Source: Protoeuglena noctilucae (taxonomy: Eukaryota). Taken from it: DNA of 54,115 bases. The notes beneath the pieces are model-generated. The model searched no databases. It saw only the letters and a program-made list of their open reading frames with translations, and was not told the DNA's origin. The position numbers were made by a program, and so were the translations under genes. Shown piece after piece: positions 1 to 52,650 of this stretch. The stretch's first letter is position 1. Every line of letters begins with the position of its first letter. The stretch lies in the NCBI GenBank assembly GCA_958009085.1, contig OY253676.1:992001-1046115 (forward strand), given 5' to 3'.

Positions 1-3000
1 CTGGTGGAGGGGCTGGGGGACCTGGGGCGGCGCGTGGGGGAGGTCGAGGGCGCGTCGCAGGAGGCGAGGGCGGCGGGGGACGCGGCAGCGAGGGCAGAGA
101 GGGGTGCGCGCGAGGCGGCGGAGAGGGCGGGGGAGGCGGAGAGGGGCGCGCGGGAGGGAGTGGAGCGCGTGGGGGCGGGGCTGCGTGCCTTGGAGGAGCG
201 GGCGGAGCGGGAGGGGCGCGCGACGGGGGAGCGGCTGGAGAGGGTGGAGAGGGAGGGGCGGGAGGTGCGGGGGCGCCTGGCTGCGGTGGAGGGGCGGGCG
301 GGGAAGGCGGTGGAGGCGGCGGACGAGGCGCGGGAGGTTGCAGGGCGGGCGGAGGCTGCGGGGGAGCGTGCGAGGGTGGCGGCAGAACGCGCAAGGGAAG
401 AGGTGGGGCGTGCAAGAGAGGAAGCGGGGCGTGCGAGGGAGGCGGGGGAGAAGGCGGCGTCGGTGGGGAAGCGCGCCTGCGAGGAGGCGGGGGAGGCGCG
501 GGAGTGGGCGAGGGAGGCGCTGGGGATGCGGGGGGACCTGGAGGCACGCATCGCGGCCAGCGAGGAGGCGAGTGGTGGCGTGGCGTGGTGTGGGAGATGC
601 ACGGGCGGGCAACGCAGATGCGCCTTTCATGGAGTCTTTGGACCCAGCTCTGTTCGCCACTCTAGTTACGACATCAACCGCTCCCTTACCCTGACCTCCC
701 CAGGCCCTGGTGCACCGCTGCTGTGGCTTGGAGTCGCAGATCACCGACCTGGGCCGTGAGGTGCGGGACGCCCGGGAGGCCGCGCGGTCGGACCTGATGA
801 CCCACGCTGCCGAGGCGAGGGCGGAGGCGCGGAGGGGGCGGGAGGCGGCGGCGGCAGACCTGGCAAGGGCAGCGGGGGCGTGGCGGGAGGAGTGGGGGGA
901 GAGCCGGAGGGGTGAGAGAGGCGCTGGCAACAGGAACCGCCGTATGCGTTGCACGTCTTGTGAGAGCGCGCAGCACGTGCGACGGCGCGTGCCTGGCTTG
1001 CCTTGTGCAACGCCTTGCCACCCCCCGCCTCCCCAGCTCTGGCGGCTGACATGGCCCGCGCCCATGCCGAGGCAGGGGACCTCTTGCTCGCGGAGCTGGA
1101 GCGCCACCGGGAGGGAACAGCAGCTGCATTAGCTGAGGCATCGCGGCGGCAGCAGGAGGCGGAGGGGCGGGCGACGCGGCTGGGGGAGAGCCTGGAGGCT
1201 GCGTGGGGGGAGATGCGTGTGCTGGGGAGGCAGGCGAGTGGGAGAGGGTGGCGGTGCGGAGTCATCGTCGTTGCGGGGTGACATGGACCAGATTGACCAG
1301 GGATCGTGGGGTTGCCTTGCAGGTGCTGGGCATGGACGGGCCATTGAAGGAGGCGGGGCGTGCGGTGGCGTTGCATGCCCAGGCCCTGGCGCGGCTGGAG
1401 GAGGACGCCAAGGCAGCGAGGGTCGAAGCGGCAGCAGCCGCGGAGCGGTCGGCGAGGGCGGCGGAGGCGGCAGAGGCGGCCGTGGGTGAGTGGCGCATGT
1501 GTCTCACTGCCTGCATCCCTGTGCGGTTTGCGCCAGACCAGGCATGCGGTGCTAGTCTCCTCCACACACCATTCTCCCACCAACAGCAGCACTCCTCACC
1601 CCCATGTAATCCCCCCCAGAGGCCACGGACCGCCACGCCCAGCAGGCGTCGATCGTGTCAGAGGTCATGGAGGCCTTCGAGCGAGCCCTGGCCGAGTCGC
1701 GTGCCCGGGAGGTCGAGCGCGATGCGGCGGCTGTGCAGCTGCGGGAGGACGTGGACCGCAAGCTGAGGGCCGCGAGGGTGCCCAGGGAGGAGGCCATGCG
1801 CGCCGTGGGGGCCGTGCAGGCGAGGGGGTGTTGGTGTTATGGAGACGCGTGAGGAGTAGAGCAGTCAGTGTGACACCAGATGATTGGATGGAGCTTGGCA
1901 CCAGCATGTTTGTAATGGACTGCAATCAGTTACTGTACTCTGTTCTTACCCCAGGAGGTGGTCACGGCTCAGTCGGAGATGGACGCCCGCCTCCACGCCC
2001 TCGAGCGGCAGATGACCACCGGACAGGGGAGAGCAGAGGGCAGCAAGGTGACGCTGGGTGGCAGCAGTTATCTCTACTGCTGAGTGTGACGACCAACGTA
2101 TGTCTCTTGTAGAACTGCCTCTGTCGCCCCTCTCTGCAGCCTTTGGGCCCCGGGGGAGTGGACCCCGCTGATCATATGGAGGCCATGGCACGCAAGTACA
2201 TGGACATGCTCATCAGCGTGCGGGACCGAGTCAACGGTGAGAAGCGGCGGAATGGTCATGAGGTCACTTTGGGGAGGAGAGGGCGGGAACACGACCGCGG
2301 CAGTGCGTGGATCCCTGACCGGTGGACATTGTAATGTCTCCATCCACTACGTGGCACTCGCTTCTCATCCCCCCGCAGTGCTGGAGAAGCGTCTCACGGA
2401 GGGCGCCACGGATGTGCTGGGCGCGGGCCTGCGCCCAGCCGTGGCCAGCGCACGGGCAGTGGCGGCGGTGGCAGAGCGGCTGGGGGCGCTGGAGGAGAGG
2501 CTGGGGACGAGGGCGGCGGAGGAGCAAGTGAGGGAAGCGAGGAGGTGAGAAAAGAAGGGGGTGGGATTGGGGGGCACTCGCTGGCTGTTAGACAAGGTTG
2601 CGACGTTGGGGAGCTGATGTGTGCATGTGCGTTGCTCGAGGGTCCTGGGCGATGGGGTTGCGATGATTGCTTGCTATCACCGGTGAATGAGTTGGTATTG
2701 GCGTGCAGGGAGGCGGAGGAGGCCCGTCGGGAGGCGGCGGATCTGCGGGAGGAGATGCGGCGGCAGGCGGCGGCAGCGAGGGCCGAGATGGCCGACATGT
2801 GGGAGACGCTGCAGGTGAGGGGAAAGAAAGAGGGCAGTGATGTTGTGGTGGGGGTTTGCCAACAAGCAAGTGTTCGCTCTGCACTGAGGTGTGGGCGCGT
2901 CTCGAACCATCAACGCCACTCTTGTAACCCACGCATCGACGTCACTCATCCCCACGTCTCTGTGTCTCAGGCGCACATGACGCGGGCGGCCCCCACGCAC

Positions 3001-4173
3001 GCCGGCCCCGTGCAGTCCGCCCCTCGCCCCCCGGGGAGCCTGGACGCCTCGGCTGCGGATGCCTATGACAGGCTGGCCGAGTCGGGGCAGGCGACGGCGC
3101 GCGTGGGCCACGGGGACACAAGTGGGGTGCCCGGGGTGGTCGAGGCGCTGGGCAGCCGCGTGGCCAGGGTCGAGAGGGAGATGGCGGCGTACGCGGGGGT
3201 CACGGGTGAGATGGGAGTGGCGGATGACAGATGACAGATGGTGGCCTAATTATAACAAGATTACCGGTGTGCAAGGGGTTGCATGCTTTACAAGCCAGGC
3301 CCAACGACTTCTGCTAGCCCATCCTCACAAACATCACAATGGTGATAGCGGCGCTTGCGTGTCACTGCCCTCGCTCGCCTGTCCCGCCCCGCAGACCGCC
3401 TCCACCAGGCCATCGAGTCCCTGCGCGCCACCCCCACATCGGACAAGGTAGGCGGCGCTGCATCGGACCTGCCGCAGCGGCTGAGTGGGCTGGCGGCGGA
3501 GGTGGACGCGCTGCGGGAGGCGCAGGGGCGGCAGGCCGAGGCCCTGGCGTCGCTGCGGGGGGCGGTGGAGGCGGTGGGGGAGCGGGCGAGGAGGGGCGAG
3601 GAGGCGGCCGAGGGGGTGGCGGAGCTGAGGGGGCGCGTGGGGCGCATCAAGGAGGTGAGGGGAGTTAGGAATGCGAGAGGGGTTAGGACATACAAGCCAT
3701 ACATGCCGCTGCTTTCTCACTGCCACTGCCCCTCCTCTGCCACTGCTTTCTTACTACGTATACCACTACCCCCTCTCTGCCTCTGCTTGCCCAGACGGTG
3801 CGTGCTGTGCGGGAGGCGTCTGCCATGACGGAGAGCAAGTGTGCGGCACTGGCGCAGCACGTGGCGGGTGAGCAGCGGGGGTCGCAAGCGGGGGAGCTGG
3901 TCTCCAGCAGCGGGCGGGTTGCGTGGCTGCGACATGACCGCTCATATATGGCCATCACTTCCGGCTCTCACGGCACCCGCAGCGCACGCCCAGGCCCTGG
4001 CGTCGCACCCTGCTCAAGAGCCCACTGCGCCATCCCACCGGGACGCAGGCGGTGGCAGGGCGGCACGGGAGAGGGGGGCGCGTGGGGCGCAGAGCGGGGT
4101 CGCCAGAGTCGCAGGGGGTGGCGGTGGGCCGGGGTCCGCGAGGGACTTCTTCCAAACGGGAGGGAAGGTGTGA
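1..4173 (+). CDS. Multi-exon Ala/Glu/Arg-rich coiled-coil protein, 5' end outside the window; function unknown
   Basis: Heptad-like exons join in frame through introns 568-703, 1234-1322 and 1820-~1954 (GC donors) plus GT-AG introns. The last exon ends ...DFFQTGGKV* at TGA 4171-4173, followed by TGTAA at 4186. Confidence 0.7.
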
Positions 4174-4185
4174 CTGAAACTCTGT

Positions 4186-4462: not shown

Positions 4463-6490
4463 TCACGACAGGAATGTCTCTCCGAGCAGCTTCTCCGTCT
4501 CGGTCCACAGCTTGCGTGCGTGGTCGCGGTCGGTGACCTTGGCAACCTTGCGGCAGATGCTGGGGTTGATGACGGGCAGGCCGAACATACCCCACGCTGC
4601 GAAGGTGGGGGACACGGTTGCCAATCCGCCATGCTTGTTTGCTAGTAACACTCACTGGCCCCATCTACACACTAACCCCATCTAGTGCCGGACATACGCA
4701 TGCCAGTCACTGCCTCCCTCTGGCAGCCATGCCCACTGCATGTTGTCACTCACCCGGCCCCAAGAAGTCGCGCGGCTTGACTGCCGGGTCCACTGCCGCG
4801 CGGACCTGCGTCAGGGCCCCCGTGGCCGCGGGCATGCCGAACATGTAGTTGATGATGGGCTCGACGAACGAAGGCACGCCCAGGCGATCCTTCTGCGTGA
4901 ACAGACACCAAGGCACGGTGACAGGGACGTGAAAGGGCTAGGGATGGCATGTTGGGGGCTAGCAGCGAAGCTTTGGGTCTGCGAATGTGCTATGCCAATT
5001 GGATTGCAAATAGGCGGCCCCACGCAGCCAGCGCCTTTGCCCATGCCGTCCTTGGCCCTGCGTCCCATGCTTTTGACAATGCCCTCCCCCTGCAGCATCT
5101 CTCGCCTGCAGCCCCGTCCTCGTCCACCCAGGGTGCGATGCCGTGACGGTGACCTTGGACCCACGCGACTCCAAACGCGACTGCGGGGATGGGGCATATA
5201 AGGACAAGTGGCCACAGAGAGAGCGATGAGATGGATGACATAGATATGCTTGACTCGAGGCGCGACTGCGGGGGGGATGGGCATGAAGGGTCGAGTGGTT
5301 ACACACAGAGAGAGCAATGACATGGATGACATGACGTGCCAGGAGAACAGGGACAGAGACAAACAGAGACAAAAGGAACTAGCCTCTCAGATGCTGTCAC
5401 AGCTGTGACTCGGGAGGGTCTGTGTGTGGCACCCTGATCTGTTGTGCTGATGGTGTTCAGCTTGTCCCTTCCCCTCTCTCCTCACCTGCAGCTCCTCGGT
5501 GAAGAGCATGTTGGCGAGCTTGGTCTCCCCGTACACGCGCCACCGGTCGTATGCCTTGGGGCCGTCATAGGTGGGGAAGAGGCCCGGGCCAAAGCGCACG
5601 CCATCAGCGGGGGCCATGGCCTGGGCGGCGCTAGAGACATTCACCACGCGACCAGCTCCCTTCTCGAGCTGCGGACATGGCCACAAGAGGCAGTTCAGTA
5701 CTAGACATGCTTACTTAGAGCACCTGCACAGACTTTCCAGGTGCAACATCACTCACTGCGGGGAGCAGGAGCTTGGTGAGGAGGAAGTGGCCGATGTGGT
5801 TGGTGGCCGTCTGCATCTCCCAGCCCTTGGAGTTCACCTCACGCTGCGAAGGCGAACAGACTGGGTCTCACACAGAGGCGAGCACACAGCGCATCGTGCC
5901 TGCAGTGCTCGCTGCCCCTTGCCTTCGGCAAAGCCATGATCCCCGCGTTCAGCATCCCCACGTGCAGCTCCTTGTGCTTCTTGAGGAACTCCGCCGCTCC
6001 CTTCCTGTGCGCATGGATGAAAGCCATGCAAGGCTCGCGTATTGGAGGGCCAGCCGCGATCGGCCCGACACGCCTGCGCGTTCGTCCGTCCTCTCTCACC
6101 GCTGTCAGGCTCCGAGGTGTCCATCTGAAGGAATTCCAGCTTCCCCACGCCCTTGGTCCCCTTGCAAGAGTCCTCGATGTCCGCCATGGCCTTGCGCGCG
6201 CGCTCCTCGCTGCGGCACGCCATCACCACCGTCGCGCCTTTCTTGTACAAGGCTCTCGCGGACTCCAGCCCCTGCGAAAAGCGGCGCGCGTGCGATGGAA
6301 AACGGATTGAGCGTTCGCGGCCACGGGCCACGGGCCGCCCTCGCGGGGCCGCGCTGGCACATCGGAAAGCAAACACAGCAGAACATGCATCTGTGATGTT
6401 GTTCGCATGCCGCACCAGGCCGGAATTCGCCCCGGTGACGAGGACAACGCGTCCCTCCTGTGAGGGAATGTCGTCGGCCGTCCAGCCCAT
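4463..6490 (-). CDS. Short-chain dehydrogenase/reductase, retinol-dehydrogenase/WWOX-like (tandem copy B)
   Basis: Spliced protein MGWTADDIPSQEGRVVLVTGANSGLG...LNAGIMA...ATNHIGHFLLT...RVVNVSS...YGETKLAN (YxxxK)...SHPGW...LWTETEKLLG. Confidence 0.92.
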
Positions 6491-6704: not shown

Positions 6705-8371
6705 TTAGCCGCTCCTGGTCTCGCCCAGCAGCTCCTCTGTCGCCTTCCACAGCCGCTCCGCCAAGGCACGGTCCTTGCTGAGAGGGTTGGCCGGGCTGCG
6801 CGATTCCGACGCCAGGACGGGGTACCCAGACATGCCCCTGTCTGCGAGCCACGTTATGCGGGAAGATTGTGTTGTTACGATCTTATGCACGCCCCACCCA
6901 GCGCTGGCCCTGCCTACGCCCCGCGTCATCTCCCCTCCCCCAGGTGCCTCACCCGGGCCGTAGTAGTCGGCGGGCTTGGCCTCCGGGTCCACGCAGGCGC
7001 GCATCTGCGAGAGGACCCCCTGGGGCAGCCGCATAGCGAAGAGGTAGTTGATGAGGCGCTCCAGGCCGGGGATACCCAACTTGCCCGTCTGGAGGTTGGT
7101 GCCCGTGAAGCCGGGGTGGGCTGCCAGGGCCAGCACGCGCGATCCCTTGGCCGTCAGCCGCGCCTGTGTCGGGCGGGGAGAGGCGAGACGCCACACGTGT
7201 GAGACAAGCACGCAGGTTATCAATAGAGCATAGGCCTGGTTGAGAGTGACTCCATGGCACATCACATGTGATAAACGCCTCACCTGCAGCTCCTCGGTGA
7301 AAAGCATATTCATGAGCTTGGTCTCGCCGTACACCATCCACCGACGGTACGCGCCCTTGCCGTCGTACTGCAGGGCATCGCAGGCATGTGTCTAATGAGT
7401 GGAGTGCATGTCATGAGGCAACGCAGAGTGGCGTGTAGTGGTAACCAGGCTGCCACTGAGCATGCCCGTCACCGTGGGGTATTCGCCGGGCCCGAAGCGC
7501 ACCCCGCACTTGGGGGCGGACGACTGCAGTGAGCTCGACACGTTCACCACGCGGCCGGCGCCCTTCTCGAGCTGCGGACACCCAAGCAAGCGTAGGAGGC
7601 GGCTCAGTACCAGACACGCTTAGTAGTAGTCAAAGCAATCGCACAAACCTCCGTCCGCTTTGTAGCACATGCACATGCACTTGCCGCGGGGAGCAGGAGC
7701 TTCGTGAGGAGGAAGTGGCCGATGTGGTTGGTGGCCGTCTGCATCTCCCAGCCCTTGGAGTTGACCTCGCGCTGCGGGGGTAGAGCGGGTGCGGTCTGGC
7801 GACGAGCTCACAGGCTATGCGGAGACCGTCGGGCAGTCGGCTGGCAGATGCCCCTTGCCTTCGGCAAAGCCATCAGGCCAGCGTTGTTCTGCAGGACGTG
7901 CAGCTCCTTGTGTTTCTTCAGGAACTCCGCCGCACCCTTGTGCACTGCACGCTCAGAAACAAAGCAGGCAGGTCGTGGCCAGGCATCGGAGGGCCAGCCA
8001 CAACGCACTTGCCTGCGCGTCTGCTGAATTCGCTCCCTCACCGCTGTCCGGCTCCGAGATGTCCATCTGCAAGAGCTCCAGCTTCCCCCCGCCCTGGGTC
8101 CCCTGGCAGGACACCTCAATGTCGGCTATGGCCTTGCGCCCGCGCTCCTCGCTGCGGCACGCCATCCACACCGTCGCGCCGCGGCTGTAGAACAATCGGG
8201 CCGACTCCAGGCCCTGCGTGAGTTAATATGCGCGAGGAGCTCAGCGACTGGCCCACACGAGTAATACCCCCGGCACGCAATGCTCCGGCGGCTCACCAGT
8301 CCAGAATTGGCACCGGTGATGAGCACCACGCGTCCATTTTGGGACGGGATATCGTCGGCGGTCCACACCAT
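6705..8371 (-). CDS. Short-chain dehydrogenase/reductase, retinol-dehydrogenase/WWOX-like (tandem copy A)
   Basis: MVWTADDIPSQNGRVVLITGANSGLG...NNAGLMA...ATNHIGHFLLT...RVVNVSS...YGETKLMN...AHPGF...LWKATEELLG; a clear paralog of copy B with mostly shared intron positions. Confidence 0.92.
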
Positions 8372-8647: not shown

Positions 8648-11600
8648 CTATCCCTTGAAGTTGTTCTTCACCGCCGCCTTGGCCATCTCCTTGGCGTGCC
8701 GCTCCTCCCGCCGCTTGCGCGTCTCCTGCCACTTGTACAGCAGTCCCCCGCGCGGGACGAGCGCCGCTGCGGAAAGCACGGAGATGTTCATACCACGCCT
8801 CATAGCGCAGGGCGTGCAGCGAAGCCGCGCGGGGGCGCAAGATGACTAAACAGCGATCGCAGGTGCCTGCCCTTCACCCGTGAGCATCCTCGCGGCCGGC
8901 ACGCTCGTCGCCGCGTCTCCCTTGTCCGCGGGCGCCGTCGTGGGCCCCGACACTTCCCCCCCGAAGAGCCCCTTCTCCATGTTCTTCTCGGCATAGGCCA
9001 GCTGGATGGCCAGGCCACTGCAGATGTTGCGGGAGCGGCTCACAGTTGAACGTGCAAAGCAACGAACACGCCAAGCCAGTGATGCACTCTCCCCAGCGAC
9101 CCGTGCCACCGTCACACAGCTCTCCCAGGCCCACAACACCACGCCCCTTTTGTCACACTCGCCTCTTGCGTTGTTCTCATCCACACACACATCGCATCCA
9201 CCCACACACACCTAACACACCCAAATTCGCCTGTTGCGGTACGTCTCGTCTGCCTCCACGGCCGGCCCCTCCCTCCGCGTCATCACGGCCCGGCTCACGT
9301 GCCCCGCCCTCAGCCCCCGTGACTCCCGGGTCTCACGCAAGGCACGGGGCACCTTGAGGGGATTGCGACGCTCGTAGAGACCCACCAGGGAATACACGCC
9401 ATCGCCATCTGCTGCGCCCGCTCCGTCCCCGTCCCCCTCCGCACTGCGATGCGTGGGGGCGGGCAGAAGTACATGTGTGGCGCTGAATGTGCCAAACACA
9501 CTCACGCAGCCCCTCACCAACCCCCCACCCCACCCCATCCCCCACTCACCCCACCCCGCTCGTCGTCTTTCGTGGCGACCTACCCCCTCCCCCACCCCCT
9601 CCCCCTCCCCTGCCCCCCATGTCCCTCCCCCTGGCCATCAGCTGCCCCGCTGACAGCCACACCAGCAGCCCCCCGTCGTATCCCGCGCTGACGTAGTGGT
9701 TGCTGTCTGACAGTTTCTGGACGCCAGAGATGCGGTCCCGGTGGCCCTGGAGGCGGGCCAGGATCTCAAAGGTGGACGCGTGGAACACCCTGGGGGGGAT
9801 GGGAGATGGAAAAAGAATGATGAGGGAATGGTGAAAGAAACTGATGCCGACGAAGGGCCGATGTGATGAGTGAGGCGTGGAGGAGTGCATTGACATTACA
9901 CCCACCCCCTCACCTTACCCCCCCATCTCTCACCTCAGCTGTTCGTCTGCCTTACACCTCAGCTATTTATCTACATACCCCCCTCCCCCCCATCTCTCAC
10001 CTCAGCTGCTTGTCCGCCATCGCCGCCACTAGAAACGCCTGCCTCTCCACCCCCTCCCTCGTCCGCACCGTCTGCCAGTCCAGCAGCATGCTCGTCACGC
10101 TCTGGCCGCTGAACGAGATCGACAGCCTAGGCACGGGCTTACTAGTTTCATTCTCGAAATACCACGCAACTAGCGCCTCGTCTTCCCCCGCCGTGATCCA
10201 CTCCCCCCACCCCCTGCCACGCGCATCGTCTGCCTCAGGCCCTTCTGGGTCTGATTCGGCCCCTTCCCCCCACTCCCCCTCAGACACTTCCTCACTCTCC
10301 AGCATCGCTGCGACGGGCGCAGACACCCCCGCTAAGGGGTCCACCAGTCCCGTGGGCTCCGGGGATGGTCCCTTGCTGCCAGACTCGGTGCCCTTCAGCA
10401 GACCCTCGCTCTGGTGAAGCACTTGTTCTAACATGTCCGCCTTCTGGGGGGATGGGAGATGGTGGGGTGTATGTTTGCAATACGATTGCTGTATGTTGTT
10501 GTTTGTACTTAGTCGAAGCGAGCAGCAGTGTGGTGGAGCGCAATGCGTGACCCATGCACATCTTAACCGGACTAGCACTGACCACAGCACCACCGCCACC
10601 ACCTGTCTCACCTCTTCCATAACACAATCAACCCTCCTCACTCCCCCCTTCTCACCTCATCCACCTTCTTGGCCACCACTTTGACCTCGTTCCCATCCTC
10701 ATCATAACGCGCGCCCTGCAGCATCGGCAACTCTGGCAGGCCCCCGCTCCCCCCCATCCCATCCCACGGATCAGCCAGCGACAAAGTGCGGGCAAACGAA
10801 CCGTCGCCCAGCCCCACGCCACCCCCGTGTTTCTGTCGCTCGCCCCCGCCCGCACCCGCACCCGCACTCGCGCTCGCATTCGGATCGAATCTCACGTGGC
10901 CCCCGTCCCCATCCCCAGTGCTTTTAGCAGCCATGACTGGCGAGGGCCCCAGCCTGGCCCCCACCCCCACCCCCCCCTCCGCCCCCACCCCCTCATTGCC
11001 AGCGATGATGGGGGCGAGGGGCTTCTCCCTCGGCCCGTCCATTCGGATCCCCACAGGCCCCCTCTGCATGCTGGTTTTGGGTAAAGGCTTCGAATCCCGG
11101 CGGGGGGAGGTCTGGGGCACCAGGCGACCCGACCTGGGGGAAATGAGAGTGGGGGAGAGGATCTATAGGGCAGTTTTTTTGTAAAGATGATGGTCAATAT
11201 CTGCAACGATACTAATGTCGATCATTTAACGCTTACCTCGATAAAGGAAGTGCTGGAGCATGTTACTGGTATGTCATTCATAATGTGGTCTTGCTGGTAG
11301 CACCAGCAATACCACCAACACATACCACCACCACCCCACCCTACATCCCACTCACTTGGTGCTCTCCCCGTTCCCGATCCTCCTCAGCTGGTTGATGCGA
11401 TCGTCTAATTCCTTGGCCTTCTTCCTATCTGCCCTCATCTTGGCAATCACGCCCTGCACCACCTTGGCCACCCCCCCCTCCAAACGCTTCTCCATCTGAC
11501 GCAGGTCCCTGAAAGCAGGATAAAAGGGCAATTTGATGATAAAAAGATTTATATCTTTTTATAACATTCATAGAATTAGTGGGGACGTAGTCGGGGTGAA

Positions 11601-14600
11601 CAGCCATGCAAGCCATTCCGTGCATTGAATAAACTCGCCTCTTCAGCGCCGTCTTGCTCCTGACCCCCCCCTCTTCGGACGACCTCTCCTCGTGCATGTC
11701 GCGGTATCGCCGGACGTTGCGCACAAAGGGGGTCCACTGGCGGGGGTGGCGGGGGAGCAGGGGGCGCCACAGGCAACACATCATCTGAGAAGGGAGAGGA
11801 AAGATGGGGAGTGTGTTATGTGTGCGGGGTGAGAGAAGGGGTGGGGAAAGGTGAGTCGTGACCTCACTGCCACCCCCGCTGCCACCCCCACTGCCACCCT
11901 CACTGCCACCCTTAACACCACCCCCACTGCCACCCCCGCTGCCATCCCCGCTGCCACCCCCACTGCCACCCTTAACACCACCCCCGCTGCCATCCCCGCT
12001 GCCACCCCCACTGCCACTGCCACCCCCGCCCCAACCACCCCCTCACCTCTGCCGTGTGCCCCCCTTCCAGTCTGTACAGCAGCTGGTAGGTGGTCGCGCA
12101 CCACACTTTGGCTGCCAGTTCGAATGCCAGAGACGCAAACTCGTTCCTCTCCCCCGCCTCGCACAGCATGGCAATGGGGCTGTCGTGCGCCTCTTCTATG
12201 ACGTGCGCGGAAGTGAGGTGGTCCAGGTCCCACACTGGGGGAAAGAGATGGGGATAAGGGAAAGGGGGATAAGAAGGGAGAGGGTGAGAGGGGACTGTGT
12301 CACTCCGATCACCAATCACAGCACATTCTCGATGCTCCAATGTCGAACTCTCATGCCACTCTCTCCCCTCACCGCGTATGCTTGCGTCGTGGGAGCACGA
12401 TGCCAGGCGGTGGCCACCCAGGTAGAGCACACCCGTCACTGGGAAGACAGAGAGGAGAAAGTAATATGTGTTTAGCATGATGCAGTTGCCGTCTCTAGTC
12501 ATTCACACGTCCCCTAATGCCCCCTCTCCCACCACTCACCCCTCCCCTCACGCCCCATCAATCTCACTCACTCCCTCCCCCATCTCCACTCACCCCTCCC
12601 CTCGTGCCCCCTCATCGCCTCGCATGTGGTGTTCTGCAGCGGCCGCAGGGCATTGCCATCCGCCATCAGATCCTCCGTCCCGTCCTGGACAGACCACACT
12701 GCGAGATTGAAAGAGAGAGAGATGAGGAGTGGATGGGAAGTGGATTACTGGTAATGGGGGTGCGAGATGTGGGGGATGCATGGCGGTGCGTGAGTGGGGA
12801 AGTGGGGTGGCTGACGGCGCAGTTACTTACTAATCCCCACTCTCCCCCCTCACAGTTCACCACAGTCAGTCTCACTCATCACTCACACTCCCCATTCCCT
12901 GTCATCTCACCGCAAATGACCCCATCATCTCCCCCCGTGACGAAGCACCCCAGGTCCTGCACAGAGGTCACGCACAGCACGGCGCCCCGGTGGCCCTTCA
13001 GATCATTGGTGACAGACAGCACGCCCGCGCTCTTCTCGTAGTCCTGATTCCAGAATAACAAGAAACCATCGGAAGTGCCTGGGGGGGGAGTGGAAGTGGG
13101 AGGGGTGTGGGGTTGAGGGGGGGAAAGGTGAGATGACGATGAGCGACGTGTGCGGGTGGTGCGTGGCTGTTACGATTGCTCGTTTGAAGTCTGAGACATA
13201 AAATGACAGTGCTAACTTTCACATATGTATGCTTACAACTACCTCATCCACCCCCGCTCACCCGTCACGACCGTCTCCATCCCCGCCCCCTTCCCCGAGG
13301 TGTCCACGACTGCCAGGCACTCCACTTTGACAGCCGGGGTGGGGAAGGCACGCAAGGGGCGGAACAGGTTCAGCTTCCACACCCAGAGCTCCCTGAAAGG
13401 AGAGGGGGGGGTGAGAGCGAGTGACTTATTGGGAGTGGACAGTTCAGTGAGAGTGGGGCGTGCGGTTGGGGCGAGGGGGTGTGCCGCGCTGGATTGAATT
13501 GCGTATCGCAAACAGCCCGATTCCCTTATCGTATCAACCCCTCGCCTGTCCCTCGTTATCGCAAACACGTGGTCCGAGTCGGGCGGCCGGTGCAGCTGCG
13601 TCATCTTGCACGCCGTCAGCTCGCACAGTATGTCTAAACACTCGGTGTTGTTGCTGCGAGCCATCAGATCTAGACTGCAGTGACAGAGGCGGTAAATGTG
13701 GATGGTGTTGTTGGCAACGGTAGAACAAGCGTACGTGTCTGATGAGCCCATACATGTGTACCTATGCAATCAACCCATACTATTATGCAACCGACTACAT
13801 TCCAAGCATGCATTGGTGGTAACACCCACTTTCAGTCTTATCATCATCCACTCGCCTGTGAATGGTGTTGTTGGGCCCTGAGCACCACAGGCTGCGGATG
13901 TGGGGGATGTACACCACTGCGAGGGGAAGAGAGATGAACAGATCGCACATCCAGCCACACCGACCCATGCCTCTGTCAGCCATGCCATTCATTGCACCCC
14001 GCCCCGCAAAGCTCTGCACCCTCTCCGCCATTCCCACATCCCCTGCCATTCATGCCACCCATCCATCCCCTGCCATCCATCCACTCCACCAAACCCACTC
14101 ACGGCTCTGCACCCGTTCAGCCACCCCCACATCCCCTGCCATCCATCCCTATCCATCTATTACAACCATCCACCCCAACTCACGGCTCTGCACCCTCTCC
14201 GCCACCCCCACATCCCCTGCATCCATCCATCCACTCCCTCACATCCCCTGCCATCCCATCATCCACTCACGGCTCTGCACCCTCTCCGCCACCCCGTCAA
14301 ACGAGTCCAGCAGCCGCCCGTCGTAGCTCCACGTCTTGACAGAACCGTCCAGGCTGCCCGTGATGACGGAGGAGGTGTTCTCGTCCACATCCATGGCGAC
14401 GATCGCAGCCTGGTGATAGGGGGGGAGGGGAACTGATGAACATCTGCCGCTGCCATAGCATCGCTCCACCACTCCATCACTCATTCCCTCACCGTGTGGC
14501 TCTGCACGGACTTGATGAACATCTGCGCCTGCGACCCATCGTCCGAGTCCCAGAACATCACATCGCGCTCGTAGCCTGGGGGGGTGGGGCAGGGAGGAAA

Positions 14601-35131: not shown

Positions 35132-38100
35132 TCACGCTCCCTCGCTTTTCCCTCCATCCATCCCCTCTGCCCCCCCCATGACGCATGCCCCCCCCTCCCC
35201 CTCCCACGTGGCCTCCCTTGGGTCGCAGGGCTCTGACCCCGTGAAACTGCAAGAAGGGGAGATGATGGTGATATATTCAGTGATGAGAAACCAAGCGAGT
35301 GAGCAACACAATTAACAACGTCAGTGACACAGTCAATGAGCTCATCCGCCACACACACCCACCCACACCCACACTCACCGCCTGTTGCACACGGGGCAGG
35401 GCAGCCCCTGGCACTCCAGCTCGTGGCAGCACCGCAGGCAGCAGGCCGATTGGCGGCAGGGCAGCAGGCGGAAGGCACGGGGCCACTCGCAGCAGAGAAG
35501 GCACAGGCCGGAACCCTGGGGAGTGGGAGACAGGGGTGACTATACGTGTATGGTAAATGGTATGCACCATGATCACAAGCGACGCGACCATCACCATAAG
35601 TAGCAAGTGCAGTGAAGTGGTTGCGCCCTGCTCACTGCCACTGTGTCGCTCCACCCTCACACCCCCTGACCCACACTGCCCATCTCTCACATACAACAGC
35701 AACTCATAGACATCCACCCCACGGCTCACCTCCGGCATGTCCGGGTCCTGGAAGTGGTACACCAAATCGTACCTCCCCCCCGCCCCCACGCGGTAGACGT
35801 TGCTGGTGCCGTCCCTCCACTTGACGCACCACCACCCGTGCCGCACGTGTGGCCCCTCCAGCACCCCTACGATGCCCCTGTCTTGGCCCCCCCACTTCCA
35901 GTCCGCGCCGCGGCGGACGGGGAGGCCGGGGCGGGCGGAGTGGGCGGACACTGGGGTAAGGGGAGAGGGGGGGGATGGGGGGGTGAGTGGATTGGGGGGT
36001 GAGGTGAGTGGAGAGAGACTGGGGGAGTGAGAGATGGGGGATGATGGGGAGGTGCGTGAAAGAGAATAAGGCGGTAAATGCTTAGAGATGGATGCTAAAC
36101 AACCATCCAAACAGGCAGCTGCGTTCCTGATAAGACGACCGATGAATCCATCGCATGCCTGCCCCCGCCCCTCACCCACGTCGTTGTGGCGGGGGCTGCC
36201 GCTGCATGACTTGGCATCCCTGTTGCTGGGATGATTGGCAGAATCCACAACTGCAGTCGTCATTGCCGGGTCGGGTGTGGAGGGGGCAGCACCAACCGCA
36301 CCGTCACTACCCCCACGCACGCGCACGCTGCAAGGGACAAGGGGCGACTGTGCATTGACTAAATGCATGGCCACTGCAGCTTTGGTAGATATGCACATGA
36401 CATGCGAACAATAACAACAACAACGCTAGCAACAACCGCATCCTCATCAGCCCCTCAGTCACCCCACTCGCATCCCTCGCCTGCTGCTGCGCCGCGTGGG
36501 TGGGCCACGGTCACTGGGGCCGTCGCCCGGGGGGGCACGGGGGGTGAATGTGGTGCGGGGGTGGAGAGGTGGGGATGACTGCGCGTCTTGACGCATCAGA
36601 TCATCGATGTCCGCAGAGACAGCAGTTGAGTTGGGGAGAGCGGTTGCAGCGACAGCAGCATGGAATGGGGGAGTGGATTTGTCAGGTGCGGGTGCGGGTG
36701 GTAAGGTGGATGTGGCGGACTCTGTTAGGGTACCCCTGGCAGATGGGATGGAATTGCGTGGCTCATCGCACCCCTCCCCTCTGCTCATGTCTACACACGC
36801 GCCCATTGTAATGCCACCACCCTCGCCACGCCCCTCCCCTGCCACTCTCCCTTCCCCACCCGCACCCGCACCCTCTCCCGCAAACGCAACCCTCCCATCC
36901 CGTGACCCCAACCCCTCATCCCCACCCCCACCATTGCCCTGATCCCTCCCCACACGCCCCCTCTCCCATCTCTCCACCCCTCCCCTCTCCCCCCTCACGC
37001 CCACTCCACCCCCAACCCCCTCCCCCAACCTCTCCACCCACCCCCTCTCTCCCACCCCCACTCTCTCCCCTCTATTCCCCTTCCTCCTCCCTCCACCCCT
37101 CTCTTCCCCATCCCCCACCCCCGCTCTCCTTCCCCCATTACCCCCATCTCTCCCAACCCTCTCCAACCCCCCCCTATCCCCCACCCCCAATCTCCCTTCC
37201 CTTGCACCCCCCTTCCCCCCACCCCTCCCACCCACCCCCCTCCCCCTCTCCCACGCCACCACCTCTTCCCATTCCGGCCCCAGTGCTAAATCCGCATCCC
37301 CCGCCGTGGCCCCCACTCTATACGAATTGACCGACCCATCACTCCACCGCACCCGCCACCACCCGTGCCCATCGGGCTCTATCATCACACCCACCGCGTC
37401 CTCGCCACCCCCCTGCGATCCCCAGGACCAAGCAGGGCCTCTCACCACAAACAGCCCCGGTCTGGCCAGCCACGATGTGACGGGCGCGTTGGGGCGGCGG
37501 CGGGGGGAGGGGTGGCGTGGGGTGGGGGTGGCAGCAGGGACGGCAGCAGGGGTGGCAGCAGGGGTGGCAGCAGGGGTGGCGAGGGCGCGGGTGGCAGCGG
37601 CGAGGATGCAAGTGGGGCAGGTGGAGCGGGGAGAGGGGGAGAGGGGGCGGGGGTGGGGTGTGGGGGAGGAGGGGGGGTGGGTGGCGGTGGGGGGGGGAGA
37701 GGGCATGCGAGGTGGGGCAGTCACTGGTGCTGTGGTGGATGGCACAGTGGCTGTTGCTGTTGTTGATGCTATTATTACATCTCTCTCCGCAGTGCGTGGT
37801 TGCATGTGGGTGTCGGTGTCGTGGGCGATGCGTGACATGGCGCGGCGGAGGGCGGCGGCCATCTGCGGGGATGAGACGAGGGGTGACGTGAATGAGATGA
37901 GATGAGATGAGACAAGTGGGGGTGGCAGTGGAGTGGCATGGGATGAGGCGAGGGCACATGCGGGATGCATGGGACAGTCACTACCTGTACCTGTATCGTA
38001 CTATCCGCCCGTCCCCATCGCCACTCCATATCAATAGTGTCGATACTAACATCCGTCATGCATCCCCTCACATACCATGCACCCCCCCCTCCTTCTCTCA

Positions 38101-40755: not shown

Positions 40756-43521
40756 ATGGGCGAGGGCGGCGGCGTCGCGAGTGGCTCCGCAGGCAGCGGG
40801 TCGCTCGAGGATGCCCTGGCCGCGGAGCTGTGGTGCGGCGCGGGCGCGGCCGGCAGCTGCACCCATGACCGTGCATGCACATCGCGATGCCCCATTCACC
40901 CCTCGATTCTCCTCGTAGGGGCGCCGAGGATGACGCGGAGGGAGATGCGGCGTCTCCTGGCGTCGTCCCTGCCCCCGCCCCCGACGCCTGCCTTCACCCG
41001 GTGCAGCTGGAGGGCATCTGCACGCACTGCGGGGCGCTGGTGGGGGGGGCGGGGCAGGTGGGCGGGGCGGGGCAGCGATATGCGTGCTGCAGCGTAAGAT
41101 CATTCGCATGCGTCCCTGCTTGCTCCCCTCCCCATGCCTGCAGATGCCGTCTAACTGCCCCACCCTCGCTGTACCGCATCCATTGCTCTGCCCTTCCACC
41201 CTCTCCCTTTCCCCGCATTCCTCACTCTCTCCGCACCCTCCCTTCTCCCACCTAACCTGCCTCACATCTCACTCATCTCCCACTCCCTCTCTCATATCCC
41301 ATCTCTCACTCCCCATCTCTCATATCCCATCTCATACCCCCCACCATCTCCCTCCCCCATACCTCCCCCCCAGTCCGCCGTCCTGCTGGGCCACGTGACC
41401 CCCGGCCTGGCCGCCACCATTGAAGGCGCCGGGCTGCTGCGTGCGATGGGGGCCGCCTCTGCGGTGCGCGAGGGCCGGCTGCACCTGGTGCTGGATCTCG
41501 ACCACACGCTGCTCAACTCGACCGGGGACAGCCGACTGGCGCTGCGGGTGCACGAGAGGGTGGGACTCATGCGCATGCTCAAGGTGGGGAGGGGAGGGGG
41601 GGGTGTTACTATGATACTATGATGGATTTTGATGCTGCCACTGTCGACTAGGAAGTTGGTATCGTGTGCAGGTGTAATGATTGTTATTCGATTGTATATA
41701 TATCTGATATCATTCACTGTGATTCTCCCCACACAGTCGGAGCAGGAGTCTTCGGGGGATGGTCCCGAGGGTCGGTCGCTGTTCTGGTTCCCCAGCACAC
41801 AGAGCGAGGGGATGTGGACGAAGGTGAGAGGGGAGAGTGGGACATGCATGAATGCACATGCGTAGCAACCATAGAGCAGCTACCCTGCATCGCCATCCCC
41901 ACCCCACGCACCTCCTCCCTCATCCCCCCAGCTCCGCCCCGGCGTCCGCCGCTTCCTCCGCGAGGCATCGCAGCGTTTCTCGGTTTCTATCAACACCCTG
42001 GGATCTCGACAGTACGCGTCCGCCATGGCGAGGCTGCTCGACCCCGACAGCCGCACCTTCCGGCGCGTGCTGGGGAAGGAGGACGGGGTGGATGCCTCGA
42101 AAAAGACACTGGCATCGAATCTTGACCTGGATGAGAGGACCACGCTGGTGCTGGACGACTCGCCCGACCGATGGGGGGCGTGCGCCTCCATCGTGGTGCC
42201 CATACACAGGCGAGGGATGCGATTGGGGGGATGAGGGTGAATGGGTGATAGATATAGACATGCATCCATTGTGGTGCCCATACACAGGCGAGGGAGATGG
42301 GCTGATGGGGGTGCATGCATGGGTAATGGTGGTCTATCTTATGCTTGCATGGGTGGTGGTGGTGATGGTGATGGTACCCGTACACAGGCGATGGGTGCAA
42401 CTGCATATTGCAGCAGTCACGCTCTGGTTGCTTGCGTGATGCTCTATGCCACATAATATTCATATTCCCATCCCCACCCACCCAGGTACCACTACTTCCC
42501 CTCCAGCACCCGTGACTTTGGTCAGTCCGAGTCTCTGTGTCACTTGCTGAGGGGGGACGATGAGGCGGAGGAGGGTGGGCCACTGTCGCATGCGCTGCGG
42601 CTGCTGGTGGCCGTGCATGACGAGTTCTTCCGACAGACTAAGGCGGGGGGGTTGCCCACGACCAAGGGGGTGCTGCGGTGAGGAGTGGGGTTGGGGGGGC
42701 AAGTACAGGGGGTGTGAGGGTGCGTGTGATGCGCATGGTTGCATGGCAGTGTTAAGTGCACGGGGTTGATGGAGCCTGTGCTGGGCAGTCAGGGTTACTA
42801 GCAATGTGACGTTAACTAACAGCAACGTGCCCCTCTCTCCCCTCTCCCCCAGTCACTGTCGCCGGGGTGTGCTGGAGGGGGAGGAGATCTGCTTCACACG
42901 CATCATCAGCCTGCGCATGGCGAGTCACGTGTCCTGTGCCATGCCACATGACACACTGCCATTGATAATCACATCCCTGCAGATGTCACGCCATGTTGTG
43001 TCATGTCGTGTCAATCATTGTTCATTCAACATCCATCACCCACTCCCACTCCCCCTCCCCCTTCTCAGCGTGACACCCCCGACCGTCACCCCGAGTGGCG
43101 CCTGGCCCTCTCTTTGGGCGCACGATGCTCCCTCGACCTCACTCCCACCACCACGGTCGTCGTCGCGGGGTCACGGGTGAGCCAGGGGGACTGCTTGCAC
43201 TGTGTGATCGCATGTCATTACATGTTATGAGTCACATGCCATGCCCCTGTGCTTGACTGCTGTTGCTATGCACCCCTCTGCTTACACCACTCCCCCTTCA
43301 CTCACGCAATCTTTGCTTGGATGCAAACAGTTAACAGGTAACAGTTACACCCCATCCCCATCCACCCACCCCCCCAGGGCACCGAGAAGGTCCTGGCTGC
43401 CGAGGCGCGCGGTCTGCCGTGCGTGGGCATTGAGTGGCTGAGGGCGTGCGCGGCGGGGGTAGCCAAGGCAGACCCGGTGCTGTACCCGCCGCCGGAACCC
43501 ACGGACGTGCGGATGCGGTAG
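40756..43521 (+). CDS. RNA polymerase II CTD phosphatase, CPL4/FCP1-like (FCPH + BRCT)
   Basis: CLHPVQLEGICTHCG; LHLVLDLDHTLLNST (DxDxT); TKLRPGVRRFL; LVLDDSPDRW; RYHYF; BRCT-like WRLALSLGARC...GTEKV...IEWLRAC. Confidence 0.9.
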
Positions 43522-43667: not shown

Positions 43668-46600
43668 TCACCCCTCCACTCCGCTCCACTCCCCCCCCTC
43701 CGATGCCACGCTGGCCGCTGCGCTGCCCCTCGCGCCCCCCCGCTTCCCCCCCACGCGCGCCGACATGGGCCGCGCCCTGCGTGAGGGCAGGCCCCCCTCC
43801 CCGGGCACCCCCGGGCCCCCCTCCGTGAACGGCGCGCCCCCCCTTTGCTGCCCCATGGCCTCGACCAGGTAGCTGCCTGCTGCTGGCAGCCCCGCGTCCG
43901 CGAAGGACGCGTCGTCAATCGCGTCGTCCATCTCCTCCAGATCGTGGAACGACTCGAAGGACTCCTCGTAAAAGGCACGCTCGCCGGCATCCGCATACTG
44001 CAAGGGCACAAAGAGGGAGGGGCGATCGTCGAGTCGCATACCATCCATGTCCGTGCCGGTACGAACCTGTGCTGCCTGTCACATCCGCTGCCTCACACCA
44101 ACCCCTTTAATCAACTGCTCTCACACCCTCTGCTCCCCTTCACCATCAGCACCTCACCTCAGGCACCTCCTCCTCGAATGTCTCCCCCTCGTAGCTCCCC
44201 TCCCCATCCCCATCCACCGCCTCTTCCATCGCATAATTTATGCGATGACCCCCTTCACCCTCCCCATCCACTGCCTCCTCCATCGCATACCCCTGCCCAT
44301 CCCTATCTCCCACTTCCTCCCCATCCCCCACGCCCCCCACCTCCTCCGTCCCCTCTCCCGCACCCTCCCCCGTACCCACCGCCAACCCCTCCGTCTCCTT
44401 CCCCTTCTCTGCCACCATACCCGCACCCGCACCCTGATCCCGCGCCATCGCCAACTCATGCGCCAGGCTCGCCCGACTCGCATCCAGGCTCACCCCCGCC
44501 ACCCATGTCGTGTGAGCCGCACCCACCCCATCCACGCTCCCCGCCACCTCCCTCGTCCCCGCCGCCCTTCCCTCGCCCTCTCTCTCTTCCATCTCCACCC
44601 CCACACCCACCACCGAGTCATCCCCCACCCGCACCCGGCCCCCATCCCACCCATCCTCGACACTCCGCCTCTCCGCTCCCCGCACCTCCTCCACCCCCGC
44701 ACCCTCCCCCTCCCGCTTGCCACGCCCACCCGCGCTTTTACCCGCACCCGCCACCCCACCGCTCCCCGCCCGAGCGCGCTTGGGCGTCCCCTGCACCTGC
44801 ACCCCAGACCCCGACCCCGCGCTGCTGCCACGGGCGCGCGCCTCGGACGCTGCCGTGGGGCGCGCGGCGTGCGGAGCGGCGGGGGGAGGGGCGCGGGGGG
44901 GAGGGCGGGGGGCGCGCTTGCGGGCGGTTGGGGTGGCGGGGGCGGGGGGCGAGGCGAGGGCGGCGGACGCGGGGCGGGTGCGGCGGCGCGCGTGGGGTGG
45001 CGTGAGCAGCGCCTGCGGGTGCAAGTGGTACGACTGGATCATACCAAGCATCTCTGAGGCTGTCGACTGGCACACGCGGTGGCGGTGTCCCTGCCTGGCA
45101 TCGCATTGGGCTCCTTGCCTGTCGGTCTGCCAGCGGCTGCGCTGCCGACGCGGGTCGGCTCTCTGCCTGCCTGGCGACGCGCAGGTATCGCGGCACGTGG
45201 CCCGGCTGGTGGGGGCGGCGCGTGAGGGCACTCGAGCCGGGGCGAGATGGCAGGGCCTCTGCGTATGGGGGAGGCCGGATGACATCAGCTGATGGCAGTG
45301 ACAGTGACGCTGCACACGGATGAGGCAGAGCCGGCGTGTGAGGGTCAGAGCGGCACCATAGCACTGCAGTGCATTGCAACCTGGTCGCCGTGTGTCATCC
45401 CGTCCCTCACCCGTGTACACGGCCAGCAGCTGCAGTCGCTGCGACATGGGTGCCGCGTGGATGGGCGACCTTGGCCTCCCCTCCCCCGTCCCCTCCCCCG
45501 TCTCCCACGCCTCCCGGACCCCCGCACCCCCCGTGCGGCGCAGTGGCTCCGGGGACTCTCGCCCGGTGGCTGGGGCGGTGCGCTCGGCGATGGTGGGGGG
45601 CGCGGTGGACGCAGACACGGGTCTGCAGTTGAGCCTCATGGTCTCGTAGCTGAAGGCCTCGACGGCGGGGACACCGGGGCCACGGGCCATGCTGCGGGGG
45701 GAAGGGCACGAGAGAGAGATGAGCGGGGTTGGCATAGAAAGGATCGGGATGGATGCTATCCAAGGCAGGCGCGTGGAAACACAGCTTAGAGCACGCGAAC
45801 TGCTGGCTCATCTCGCCTGATGGCCTTGCTGATGGTGCCGAACTGCAGCGACCGGTCGAGGTCCCTTGACTCCAGGCGCTGCTGCTTGATCAGGGCCGTC
45901 TTGGACACCTCGTACCTGGGGCATGTGCACGGACGTGGGGGTTTAGATTCGGAAGAAAGGGTGAGCTGGACGTGCGGGGCGGGGAGTGCATGTCTGATGA
46001 GCGAGGGTGTACTAGCAGCGCCGCCACCACTGCCCGTCACCGGTGCAGCAGCTGCGCGAGTGCCGCCTCCCTCCTCTGCTTCAATTCCGCGAACATGCGC
46101 CCAATGCGCTCGTCCATGGCCTCCGCCTCGCGACGCTGCCGCTCCGACAGGCGCGCGTCCTCCGCCGCCCACCGCTCCTGCTGCCGGGACAGGCACGCGT
46201 CCATCTCCTCCGATTCCAGGGCATCGGCCTCCTCGCGGACCAACTGGGCGGTGCGGGGACGCAGGGGGGTCGAGCAGGCACGACGCGAGCAATGGGCATA
46301 ACACAGGCAATGATGTTGACCGATCCATGAGCGTCCCCTGCGCCCTCCCACCTGTGCGGCGCGGTACTCCTTCTGGCTGACCATCTTGCTCTCCTTGTGC
46401 CTCAGGTCCACCAGCTTGGTCGACGCCTTGAAACGCAGACGCTCCGCCTCCCTGGGGACACCCGGGGCAGCATGCCATGGGACTGCCCTGCCAGTCACTG
46501 CCACAGTGATACCAGACGCGTAACCAGCCCATCTCATCCCCCTCTCACCTCTTCCGCCTCTGCAGCACGTCCTCCTGCAGGTGCTTGGCCCGCATGCCGT

Positions 46601-48335: not shown

Positions 48336-51224
<2,889 letters not shown>

Positions 51225-51371
51225 GCACTTTTGCATCGCTGACTGGACTCCACACGAACGATGATTGATGATTGTGTCAATGTTGCCGTATCGGCAAAGC
51301 GTCTCTGCTCACTTGAACGGGCCAGGCCAGCGCAACGGTAACGCCGTCTACCCGTGCACACGAGTGATCCC

Positions 51372-52650
51372 CTACGCCGCCAGTCCAATCTCCCTCTGCA
51401 GCTCCTCCAACTCCTTTTCCTCGTCGGTCTGGGCAGCGGGGGGGGCGCGGCCCTGGGGCACCGTGCGGGGGGCCGAGGGCTGCGGGGAGAGAGGGGAGGA
51501 CAGCATGAGTGCCACTGTCTGCAGCAGGGGTAGCAGCGATCGCCAGGCATCCACGCCAAGTCGCTGCCCCCGTGCTGCGCCCCCATGCATCCCCACCAGC
51601 TGCGTGGCGGGCACGGCAGGCGTGTCGAGCATCTTCTCCTCCAGGACCTGGCCCTCGAGTTCGTCGAGCTCCTTCTGAAGATCGGGGTCCTCCACGTCCA
51701 GGCCAGCTGCGAGCCGAAACCATAAGCAACGGTCGCACAGTAAGTCATGTATGCCACACGCGCACACGCACACGCACGCACCGACCCCCCTCCCAACCCC
51801 TCACCGTTCCCAGCGATGGCCTGCACCACCTCCTCGTAGTCTGCCCGGATGTCCTCCATCTCGTCCTGCATCTTGGTCACGTCCTCCACCTTCATGGACT
51901 TGACGGCCCTCTGCGACGACGAACAAGCACTGGTTGCGGTCGACCCTACCCAGCGCAGTGCGTGTCAGTCAGTCAGCTTCTCTGTCCAATACTCCATCCC
52001 TCTCAACAGCCCCTGCCCCACCTTCTGCGCGTCCGTGGCCAGCTTCTGCGCCGACACGACCTCCTGGGTGTGCGACATGCCCTCAAGCTCCTGCTTCTGC
52101 TTCATCATGTTCAAGATGACGTTCTGCATCCTCTCCACCTCCTGCTCGTACATCTTCTTCTGTTGGAGGCACAGCATGGCCGCCTTCTTGTTCCCCTTGG
52201 CCAAATAGGCCTTGGCCTTCTCCTGCTCCTGCTCCTGCTTCTGCGCGCCGCGGCGACGAAGAGAGAAGGATCATCCGCGACGCCGGGGCGGAGCTGCGCG
52301 CGACGCGCCCGCGCGCAGTGTGCTCTGGCCCGCGTCGCGTCGCTCGCCTTCTCCAGAAGCTCCACCCGCTTCTGCGTCAACTCGATGGTCTCGTCCAGCT
52401 TATGGAGAGCCGAGTGCGGGTCCGAACGGGGCCCTGGACCCGACGGCCCGCTCCCTGCAAGCCACGGTCCGCGAGCGGGGCGCGCGTTTAGGGTACCAGC
52501 GCGACCGTGGGCGCCCGGCACGAGCCCGTCACGACGGCCTAGATCCAGAGCTGACCAGTCATCTCCGAGAGACGGCCCCTTGCCCTGCAACGCGAACTCG
52601 CCTCCCGAGGGTGCATCCCCCTTCCCCCTCCCAAAGAGCCTCGCGAACAT
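51372..52650 (-). CDS. SNF7: ESCRT-III subunit Snf7/Vps32 (CHMP4-like)
   Basis: MFARLFG...ALHKLDETIELTQKRVELLEK|K...NKKAAMLCLQQKKMYE...KVEDVTKMQDEMED...DLQKELDELE...DEEKELEELQREI. Confidence 0.9.

Follow-up and report, generated by a model that had tools for sequence, protein, structure and literature searches.

We examined a stretch of 54,115 nt from the Protoeuglena noctilucae assembly (contig OY253676.1, positions 992,001 to 1,046,115; hereafter the window, meaning this whole stretch), in which a preliminary description had noticed an unusually large number of introns that begin with GC instead of GT and end with AG. The window is 63.5% GC, sharing the high genomic GC of lineages in which GC-AG introns are elevated, and is closed by a (TTAGGG)n array of about 40 copies (53881-54115), which identifies it as a chromosome end. 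The locus was found both in marine metagenomes and in sequencing runs of a cultured organism. A Pfam scan of its open frames revealed ordinary eukaryotic genes split into short exons, encoding a WD40 protein, two tandem SDR-like proteins, a third SDR, FOP/FOR20, Ycf54, an LRR/CS dynein assembly factor, a MIB_HERC2/RING protein, a kinase, a NIF/BRCT phosphatase, squalene epoxidase and Snf7; flagellar genes are among them. The nuclear Ycf54 gene (29989-31058, minus strand) has three GT-AG introns and encodes a short Ala/Arg-rich presequence without a signal peptide, and the nearest protein cluster of the squalene epoxidase is plant-type. Judging from these genes, with the Ycf54 presequence read as a transit peptide, the host is probably a flagellate-capable green-lineage alga with a primary plastid. 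Intron density is about eight per predicted gene. Introns are 57% GC, with a C/(C+T) ratio of 0.54 in their interiors, and third codon positions are 84% GC.

That GC-AG introns are abundant in the window is confirmed. All 22 donors listed in the preliminary description read G/GC(A or G)AG on the strand assigned to them (a slash marks the exon-intron border), 19 as GCGAG and 3 as GCAAG, with G at position -1 in 22/22, and none carries a U12-type motif (GCATCC or RTATCCTT). The motif by itself is no proof of a donor: the G/GCRAG hexamer occurs 127 times on both strands, mostly within coding sequence, and just 21 of these occurrences are predicted donors. Support was obtained at the RNA level for two sites (52601 and 52347), from an orthologue for two (13855 and 13545) and from paralogues for three (5922, 7858 and 7684).

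The RNA-level support comes from the Snf7 gene:

51375..52650, minus strand: Snf7 (ESCRT-III) coding region with six exons and five introns (GC, GC, GT, GT, GT), from the Pfam Snf7 match and the exact spliced mapping of protein P0001
52455..52601, minus strand: GC-AG intron 1 of the Snf7 gene, 147 nt, donor gag/GCGAGT, missing from P0001 and P0003
52241..52347, minus strand: GC-AG intron 2 of the Snf7 gene, 107 nt, donor aag/GCGAGC, missing from P0001 and P0003

A protein search with one Snf7 exon returned P0001 (232 amino acids, 100% identical, longest contig 922 nt), whose cluster contains two more proteins, namely P0003 (271 amino acids, on a 1038-nt contig) and P0002, an unspliced genomic open reading frame (ORF). 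P0001 matches the genome letter for letter over six exons and P0003 over five. Since the genomic coding span is 1276 nt, the contigs of 922 and 1038 nt represent spliced RNA and not genomic DNA. Five placements of intron 1 and three of intron 2 would yield the protein, and in each case the sole placement with an AG acceptor begins with GC. The exact mapping of both proteins across these junctions thus bears out the proposed donors at 52601 and 52347, which are removed from mRNA. Introns 3-5 are GT-AG, so that 2/5 Snf7 introns are GC-AG. The last intron (51480-51596, minus strand; 117 nt, in frame and stop-free) is retained in P0003, where it adds 39 residues, and this retention also marks the contigs as RNA. 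Spliced and retained forms of this intron are both present in environmental transcript assemblies.

Paralogue comparison was possible in the tandem SDR-like genes (copy 1 at 4463-6027 and copy 2 at 6705-8371, both on the minus strand), whose exons align well and whose introns align poorly:

7772..7858, minus strand: GC-AG intron of copy 2, 87 nt, with an in-frame stop, donor aag/GCAAGG; paralogue alignment, no GT-AG alternative
5844..5922, minus strand: GC-AG intron of copy 1, 79 nt, at the same position as that of 7858; paralogue alignment and gene finder
7572..7684, minus strand: GC-AG intron of copy 2, donor gcg/GCAAGT; paralogue alignment, with the acceptor read by hand because that of the gene finder was wrong
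5621..5756, minus strand: GT-AG intron of copy 1, the paralogue of the intron with GC donor 7684; gene finder and paralogue alignment

All three GC donors were placed where conservation between the copies stops, in agreement with their original assignment. At 5922 and 7858, identity runs through AAG/GCAAGGGGCA in both copies and is then lost; at 7858, conservation ceases about 10 nt past the donor and returns at the acceptor. The next intron position shows a switch between GT and GC, copy 1 having GCA/GTGAGTG (5756) and copy 2 GCG/GCAAGTG (7684), with exon identity stopping at the donor. The middle of the intron that follows 5756 and 7684 holds a conserved stretch, which may be the branch region. 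The GT-AG intron 7472..7370 of copy 2 is precisely missing from copy 1, which confirms that the paralogue alignment follows true exon borders; this intron was lost or gained since the SDR-like duplication.

Orthologue comparison concerned two adjacent introns of the WD40 gene:

13675..13855, minus strand: GC-AG intron, 181 nt, donor cag/GCGAGT; colinearity with P0017
13393..13545, minus strand: GC-AG intron, 153 nt, in frame and stop-free, donor cag/GCGAGG; colinearity with P0017

P0017, a protein of 385 amino acids that is 61% identical and derives from a related organism, was recovered by an exhaustive representative search with the ORF running through 13545. Eight exon blocks of the WD40 gene align colinearly with it, and the in-frame intron 13545..13393, of 51 codons, is exactly missing from it. 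We enumerated every frame-compatible, stop-free GT-AG or GC-AG pair between the anchors and scored its length difference to P0017. At the upstream junction a zero difference was obtained for 1/22 pairs, that of GC donor 13855, and at the second junction for 2/66, one with GC donor 13545 and the other a GT pair that deletes a conserved exon. The claimed donors 13855 and 13545 are accordingly the only ones that keep the gene colinear with its orthologue. Further downstream (11599-11790, minus strand, against P0017 residues 316-380), P0017 continues beyond the point equivalent to a predicted GC donor at 11638 and ends soon after. Where the window has GCGAGT, the relative may have a GT donor of the GTGCGT type, to judge from the residues Lys-Arg-Cys-Val of P0017 at that point.

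The window-wide share of GC-AG introns was estimated with a small generalised hidden Markov model, in which 3-periodic order-2 coding scores were seeded from Pfam-supported exon parts and the Snf7 exons, donor and acceptor matrices were fixed, and the prior set the share of the alternative second donor base. GG and GA donors served as decoys:

Prior 0.02: GC donors in 15 of 121 introns; GG decoy 0; GA decoy 0
Prior 0.1: GC donors in 22 of 123 introns; GG decoy 6; GA decoy 3
Prior 0.25: GC donors in 26 of 124 introns; GG decoy 15; GA decoy 8

At prior 0.1 the model gave 15 genes with 123 introns, 22 of them GC (18%), which is in line with the 15-20% of about 120 introns estimated beforehand, although at least one of the 22 is false. 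These donors are spread over 11/15 predicted genes. Claimed sites were recovered in 19/22 cases at prior 0.1 and in 13/22 at prior 0.02; those missed at 0.1 were 19964 and 20374, whose FOR20 gene was not predicted, and 16129. Allowing GC at prior 0.02 raised the total score by 122 nats above that of a GT-only model, and self-training from 0.02, 0.1 and 0.25 converged on a GC share of 0.13-0.17. Four of the six GG decoys at prior 0.1 fell within 6-42 nt of a GC donor, suggesting that an intron is needed there and that no GT is on offer. Likewise, for 21/24 GC introns tested, no GT-AG alternative reached the tenth percentile of GT-intron signal scores. We infer from this modelling that about one in six introns of the window, or 19-22 of about 125 (15-18%), would be GC-AG.

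The sites that are called from gene modelling and reading frames are the following ("no good GT alternative" refers to the percentile just given):

568..703, plus strand: predicted GC-AG intron, coiled-coil gene; gene finder, no good GT alternative
1234..1382, plus strand: predicted GC-AG intron, coiled-coil gene; gene finder, no good GT alternative, a GG decoy being chosen 9 nt away if GC is disallowed
1820..1954, plus strand: predicted GC-AG intron, coiled-coil gene; gene finder, no good GT alternative, a GG decoy 6 nt away if GC is disallowed
4893..5105, minus strand: predicted GC-AG intron, SDR-like copy 1; gene finder, no good GT alternative
11509..11638, minus strand: predicted GC-AG intron, WD40 gene; gene finder, no good GT alternative, donor removal costs 19.8 nats
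15908..16129, minus strand: uncertain GC-AG intron after the 14-codon first exon of the WD40 gene; frames, predicted at prior 0.25 only
18181..18364, minus strand: predicted GC-AG intron, SDR gene, donor cag/GCGAGT; gene finder and frames, weak GT alternative at 18340
19964..20059, plus strand: candidate GC-AG intron, FOR20/FOP gene, 96 nt, in frame and stop-free; frames, no good GT alternative, FOP_dimer/LisH beginning immediately after it
20374..20492, plus strand: uncertain GC-AG intron near the FOR20 3' end; frames
22655..22733, plus strand: predicted GC-AG intron, low-scoring gene; gene finder, no good GT alternative
29177..29398, plus strand: predicted GC-AG intron, 15-exon gene; gene finder, no good GT alternative
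36328..36480, minus strand: predicted GC-AG intron, MIB_HERC2/RING gene; gene finder, GT alternative at 36462 adds 6 codons
42210..42485, plus strand: predicted GC-AG intron, CPL-like gene, where the NIF exon ends; gene finder, GT alternative at 42237
42920..43068, plus strand: predicted GC-AG intron, CPL-like gene; gene finder, no good GT alternative
45692..45816, minus strand: predicted GC-AG intron; gene finder, no good GT alternative

The preliminary description also saw motifs restored by splicing in the FOR20, CPL and SDR genes; these would correspond to motifs of animal and plant homologues, and no search result backs them. In Pfam searches (E up to 10) with peptides from 18 exons, matches were confined to the long exons for NIF and FOP, the short ones being beyond reach; phmmer searches of the PDB returned 0 matches for two SDR exons and for the FOR20 stretch, again too short for such a search.

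Several further features were observed in the window. A 529-codon frame (44149-45735, minus strand) is open throughout and corresponds to one ORF on 6 contigs (P0007); the gene finder splits it with two introns, one of them a doubtful GC intron at 45118. The squalene epoxidase gene (plus strand) contains two tandem duplications that carry splice sites, at 50089-50179 and 50400-50533. The 45-nt unit comprises an exon end and its GT donor, and the 71-nt unit an acceptor and the first ~30 nt of the next exon, so that each duplication yields two candidate splice sites, an arrangement reminiscent of intron creation or extension through tandem duplication. A 12-nt array, CACTGCCACCCC, is repeated about 13 times inside a WD40-gene intron (11865-12017), and its reverse complement, GGGGTGGCAGCA, about 5 times within the long open frame of the MIB_HERC2 gene (37522-37580). 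Finally, a 48-nt inverted repeat (88% complementary, 11-nt spacer) lies at 53709-53815, just inside the telomere.

Donor context differed between the two classes. Among externally supported donors, the full consensus (G/GCRAG or G/G.RAG) was present in 7/7 GC and 8/13 GT sites, and the score over seven flanking positions had a median of 4.8 for GC (n=7) and 2.8 for GT (n=13; one-sided Mann-Whitney p = 0.004). Predicted donors followed the same direction, with A at -2 in 20/22 GC vs 47/101 GT, A at +4 in 22/22 vs 78/101, and T at +6 in 11/22 vs 21/101; the penalty built into the model accounts for part of this strength in predicted GC donors, a bias absent only from the 7-vs-13 comparison. GC introns predicted by the model mostly end in CAG, preceded by C/T-rich tracts. 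Median intron lengths were 151 nt (GC) and 153 nt (GT), and median acceptor scores 2.8 (GC) and 3.7 (GT). The stronger flanks of GC donors fit ordinary U1 recognition with compensation, and not an altered U1. With C/(C+T) at 0.54 in introns and about 17% C at donor position +2, T is still selected at this position, but far less strictly than in species where GC donors are at 1%.

Given these results, we consider it likely that the GC-AG introns of the window are ordinary U2-type introns, produced by T-to-C drift under GC-ward pressure and tolerated at strong donors. Such pressure on the genome would turn T to C at intron position +2, and the changed donors would survive mainly where the remainder of the site (AG/G.RAGT) pairs well with U1 and U6, offsetting the mismatch. 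GC donors would then be spliced through the standard U1 pathway by the major spliceosome. Both the mutational cause and the use of the standard pathway are, like the window-wide share, what we infer from the patterns above. The canonical U1 5' end is of the ACUUACCUG type and the canonical U6 box is ACAGAGA; a window-wide scan returned no Rfam family at gathering score, and hence no small nuclear RNA gene in the window.

Published systems provide a scale for this share. In five model species GC-AG introns make up 0.37-0.87% (Sheth et al., 2006, PMC1557818), so that the baseline of around 1% assumed in the preliminary description holds for these species; it is not universal, as Emiliania huxleyi (56%) and pelagophytes (~14-17%) demonstrate. 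GC-AG introns in the model species have flanks closer to consensus, compensating the +2 mismatch to U1, and GT/GC switching between homologues is common (PMC1557818). The introns of the window resemble these U2-type introns in their compensated donors and in GT/GC switching, and differ in being present at ~15-18%.

In E. huxleyi, 56% of 241 curated junctions were GC, with reverse-transcription PCR checks (Feldmesser et al., 2014, PMC4028052). That study describes GC donors verified by cDNA and frequent intron retention. Its organism shares with ours the status of a GC-rich marine alga (65% GC there) with AG acceptors kept, but is a haptophyte whose junctions are GC in 56-60% of cases and GA in some, whereas here the share is ~15-18%, we saw no evidence of GA, and the host is green-lineage-like. 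The pelagophytes Aureococcus anophagefferens (~14-17%) and Pelagomonas calceolata (~14%) have predicted GC-AG shares of the same order as the window, which the authors credit to high genome GC (bioRxiv 10.1101/2024.10.30.620910). Unlike the window, with ~8 introns per predicted gene, these stramenopiles are intron-poor, having 0.19-0.92 introns per gene in that account, which sets Pelagomonas apart from the host of the window. The precedents of E. huxleyi and the pelagophytes, as reported there, tie high GC-AG use to high genome GC.

Green algae offer no such precedent in the sources at hand. For Chlamydomonas reinhardtii, 532 GC-AG and 25,053 GT-AG introns supported by expressed sequence tags are tabulated, or ~2% (Bartschat and Samuelsson, 2010, PMC2846911 Table 2). 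This alga is intron-rich like the window and its genome GC is comparable (PMC12718437). The sequenced picoprasinophytes are intron-poor (PMC13213038 Table 1) and in this do not match the window. Prasinoderma, at 69.8% GC and with exon numbers resembling those of intron-poor chlorophytes, is an unlikely match as well; the statistics of Nephroselmis pyriformis (64.2% GC, 0.27 genes per kb) are similar to those of the window, which would make it a tentative candidate. In the open full-text literature we came across no paper that describes an elevated share of GC-AG introns in any green alga, prasinophytes included, subscription papers and supplements being outside the scope of that search. The share of ~2% in Chlamydomonas at similar GC indicates, on these published figures, that GC pressure alone does not explain 15-18%. 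The earlier proposal of GC-biased mutation tolerated at strong donors is thus upheld in part: the compensation seen in the 7 vs 13 donors and the GT/GC switch between paralogues fit it, but GC content does not suffice as a full explanation.

An alternative, raised for U1 and U6 in the preliminary description as well, is a change in 5' splice-site recognition itself: with a variant U1 5' end, or with changes in U6, U5 or Prp8, C at +2 would be accepted almost as well as T, and the abundance of GC-AG introns would reflect the machinery and not mutation pressure. A share about eight times that of Chlamydomonas (~2%) despite similar genome GC, and the presence of GC donors in 11/15 predicted genes, are in favour of such a change. 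However, GC donors require better flanks than GT donors, which is unexpected if C at +2 paired normally, and GT still accounts for 82% of donors although the neutral C/(C+T) in introns is 0.54. We therefore regard changed recognition as improbable, if the foremost of the alternatives. In its evolutionary form, an intron-rich member of the green lineage would have shifted independently to large-scale use of GC donors because the specificity of its spliceosome (U1 5' end, U6, or U5/Prp8) had shifted, mutation pressure not being the sole cause; to this version we give the same low credence.

Less probable still is that the introns are largely an artefact of annotation. In a genome rich in GC, the hexamer GGCGAG is common as a codon pair for Gly-Glu, and the true donors could be nearby GT sites, or there could be no intron at all. 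The 106/127 occurrences of G/GCRAG that are not donors, the three sites with GT alternatives, the rise of decoys to as many as 15 at the loose prior, and the individual weakness of four sites (19964 and 13545 are in frame and stop-free; 20374 and 16129 are possibly unneeded) all lend it some weight. Opposed to this are the seven sites supported from outside the gene model, the yield of 15 GC donors and 0 decoys at the 2% prior, the 21/24 tested sites without a good GT alternative, and the absence from an orthologue of the 51 codons of an in-frame intron.

A number of our own observations nonetheless weigh against reading the whole set as genuine, compensated GC donors. RNA-level support covers 2/22 sites, and the remaining 15/22 outside the seven rest on gene modelling and reading frames. 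P0017 lies on a 20-kb Logan contig and may itself be a gene prediction, for which reason we counted it as comparative and not as RNA evidence. The gene finder is rough: it recovered 16/22 curated donors, it misplaced the acceptor of each of the two GC introns proven by RNA, its GC call at 8012 is false (the paralogue reading favours GT at 8041), and those at 9230 and 45118 are doubtful. Under self-training, a GG decoy begun at 0.25 remained at 0.13-0.155, implying that permissive priors over-call. Score loss upon donor removal did not discriminate, being small at several sites and near 0 at proven ones. Frame-compatible GT-AG alternatives of modest score exist for 18364, 36480 and 42210. Two claimed sites may be no coding introns: at 16129 an internal ATG start is an alternative, and at 20374 read-through meets a stop after 9 codons, where the protein may end. 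No further transcripts emerged when longer proteins were searched with exons taken from SDR-like copy 2 or from the SDR gene. In cluster look-ups with 18 genomic ORFs, P0016 (described below) and P0017, 8/18 ORFs were present and their clusters held only genomic ORFs. Scans of JGI metagenomes returned no relative for the WD40 ORF and no more than two loci (30% identity) for P0001; neither the 922-nt nor the 1038-nt contig is present there. Lastly, the window represents 54 kb at one chromosome end and not a whole genome.

It is very improbable that the donors are in truth GT and show C at +2 through strain polymorphism or a mistake in sequencing or assembly: the window does derive from a metagenome assembly, but we found no support for this explanation, runs of the cultured organism and several metagenomes contain 97-99% of the words of 10-20 kb, read-through ORFs that require C (a T at either base would give TGA) recur across 13545 (P0016, on 19 contigs) and across 13855 (P0022, on 2 contigs, its cluster representative on 14), which argues that the C is no assembly error, and it is not credible that T was independently misread as C at the +2 position of 22 donors.

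High GC-AG use is itself already known from E. huxleyi and the pelagophytes, and what the window adds is probably a green-lineage, intron-dense case. With about eight introns per gene and about one in six of them GC-AG, most genes would carry at least one GC-AG intron. Gene prediction restricted to GT donors, in this alga or in metagenome-assembled genomes of its relatives, would therefore leave most proteins truncated, frame-shifted or wrongly joined. Such GT-only mis-prediction affected the initial gene set of E. huxleyi, according to the account of its gene models (PMC4028052). Should a shift in the spliceosome prove true, this lineage would provide a natural system, with hundreds of GT/GC donor pairs among paralogues and sister species, for the evolution of 5' splice-site recognition.

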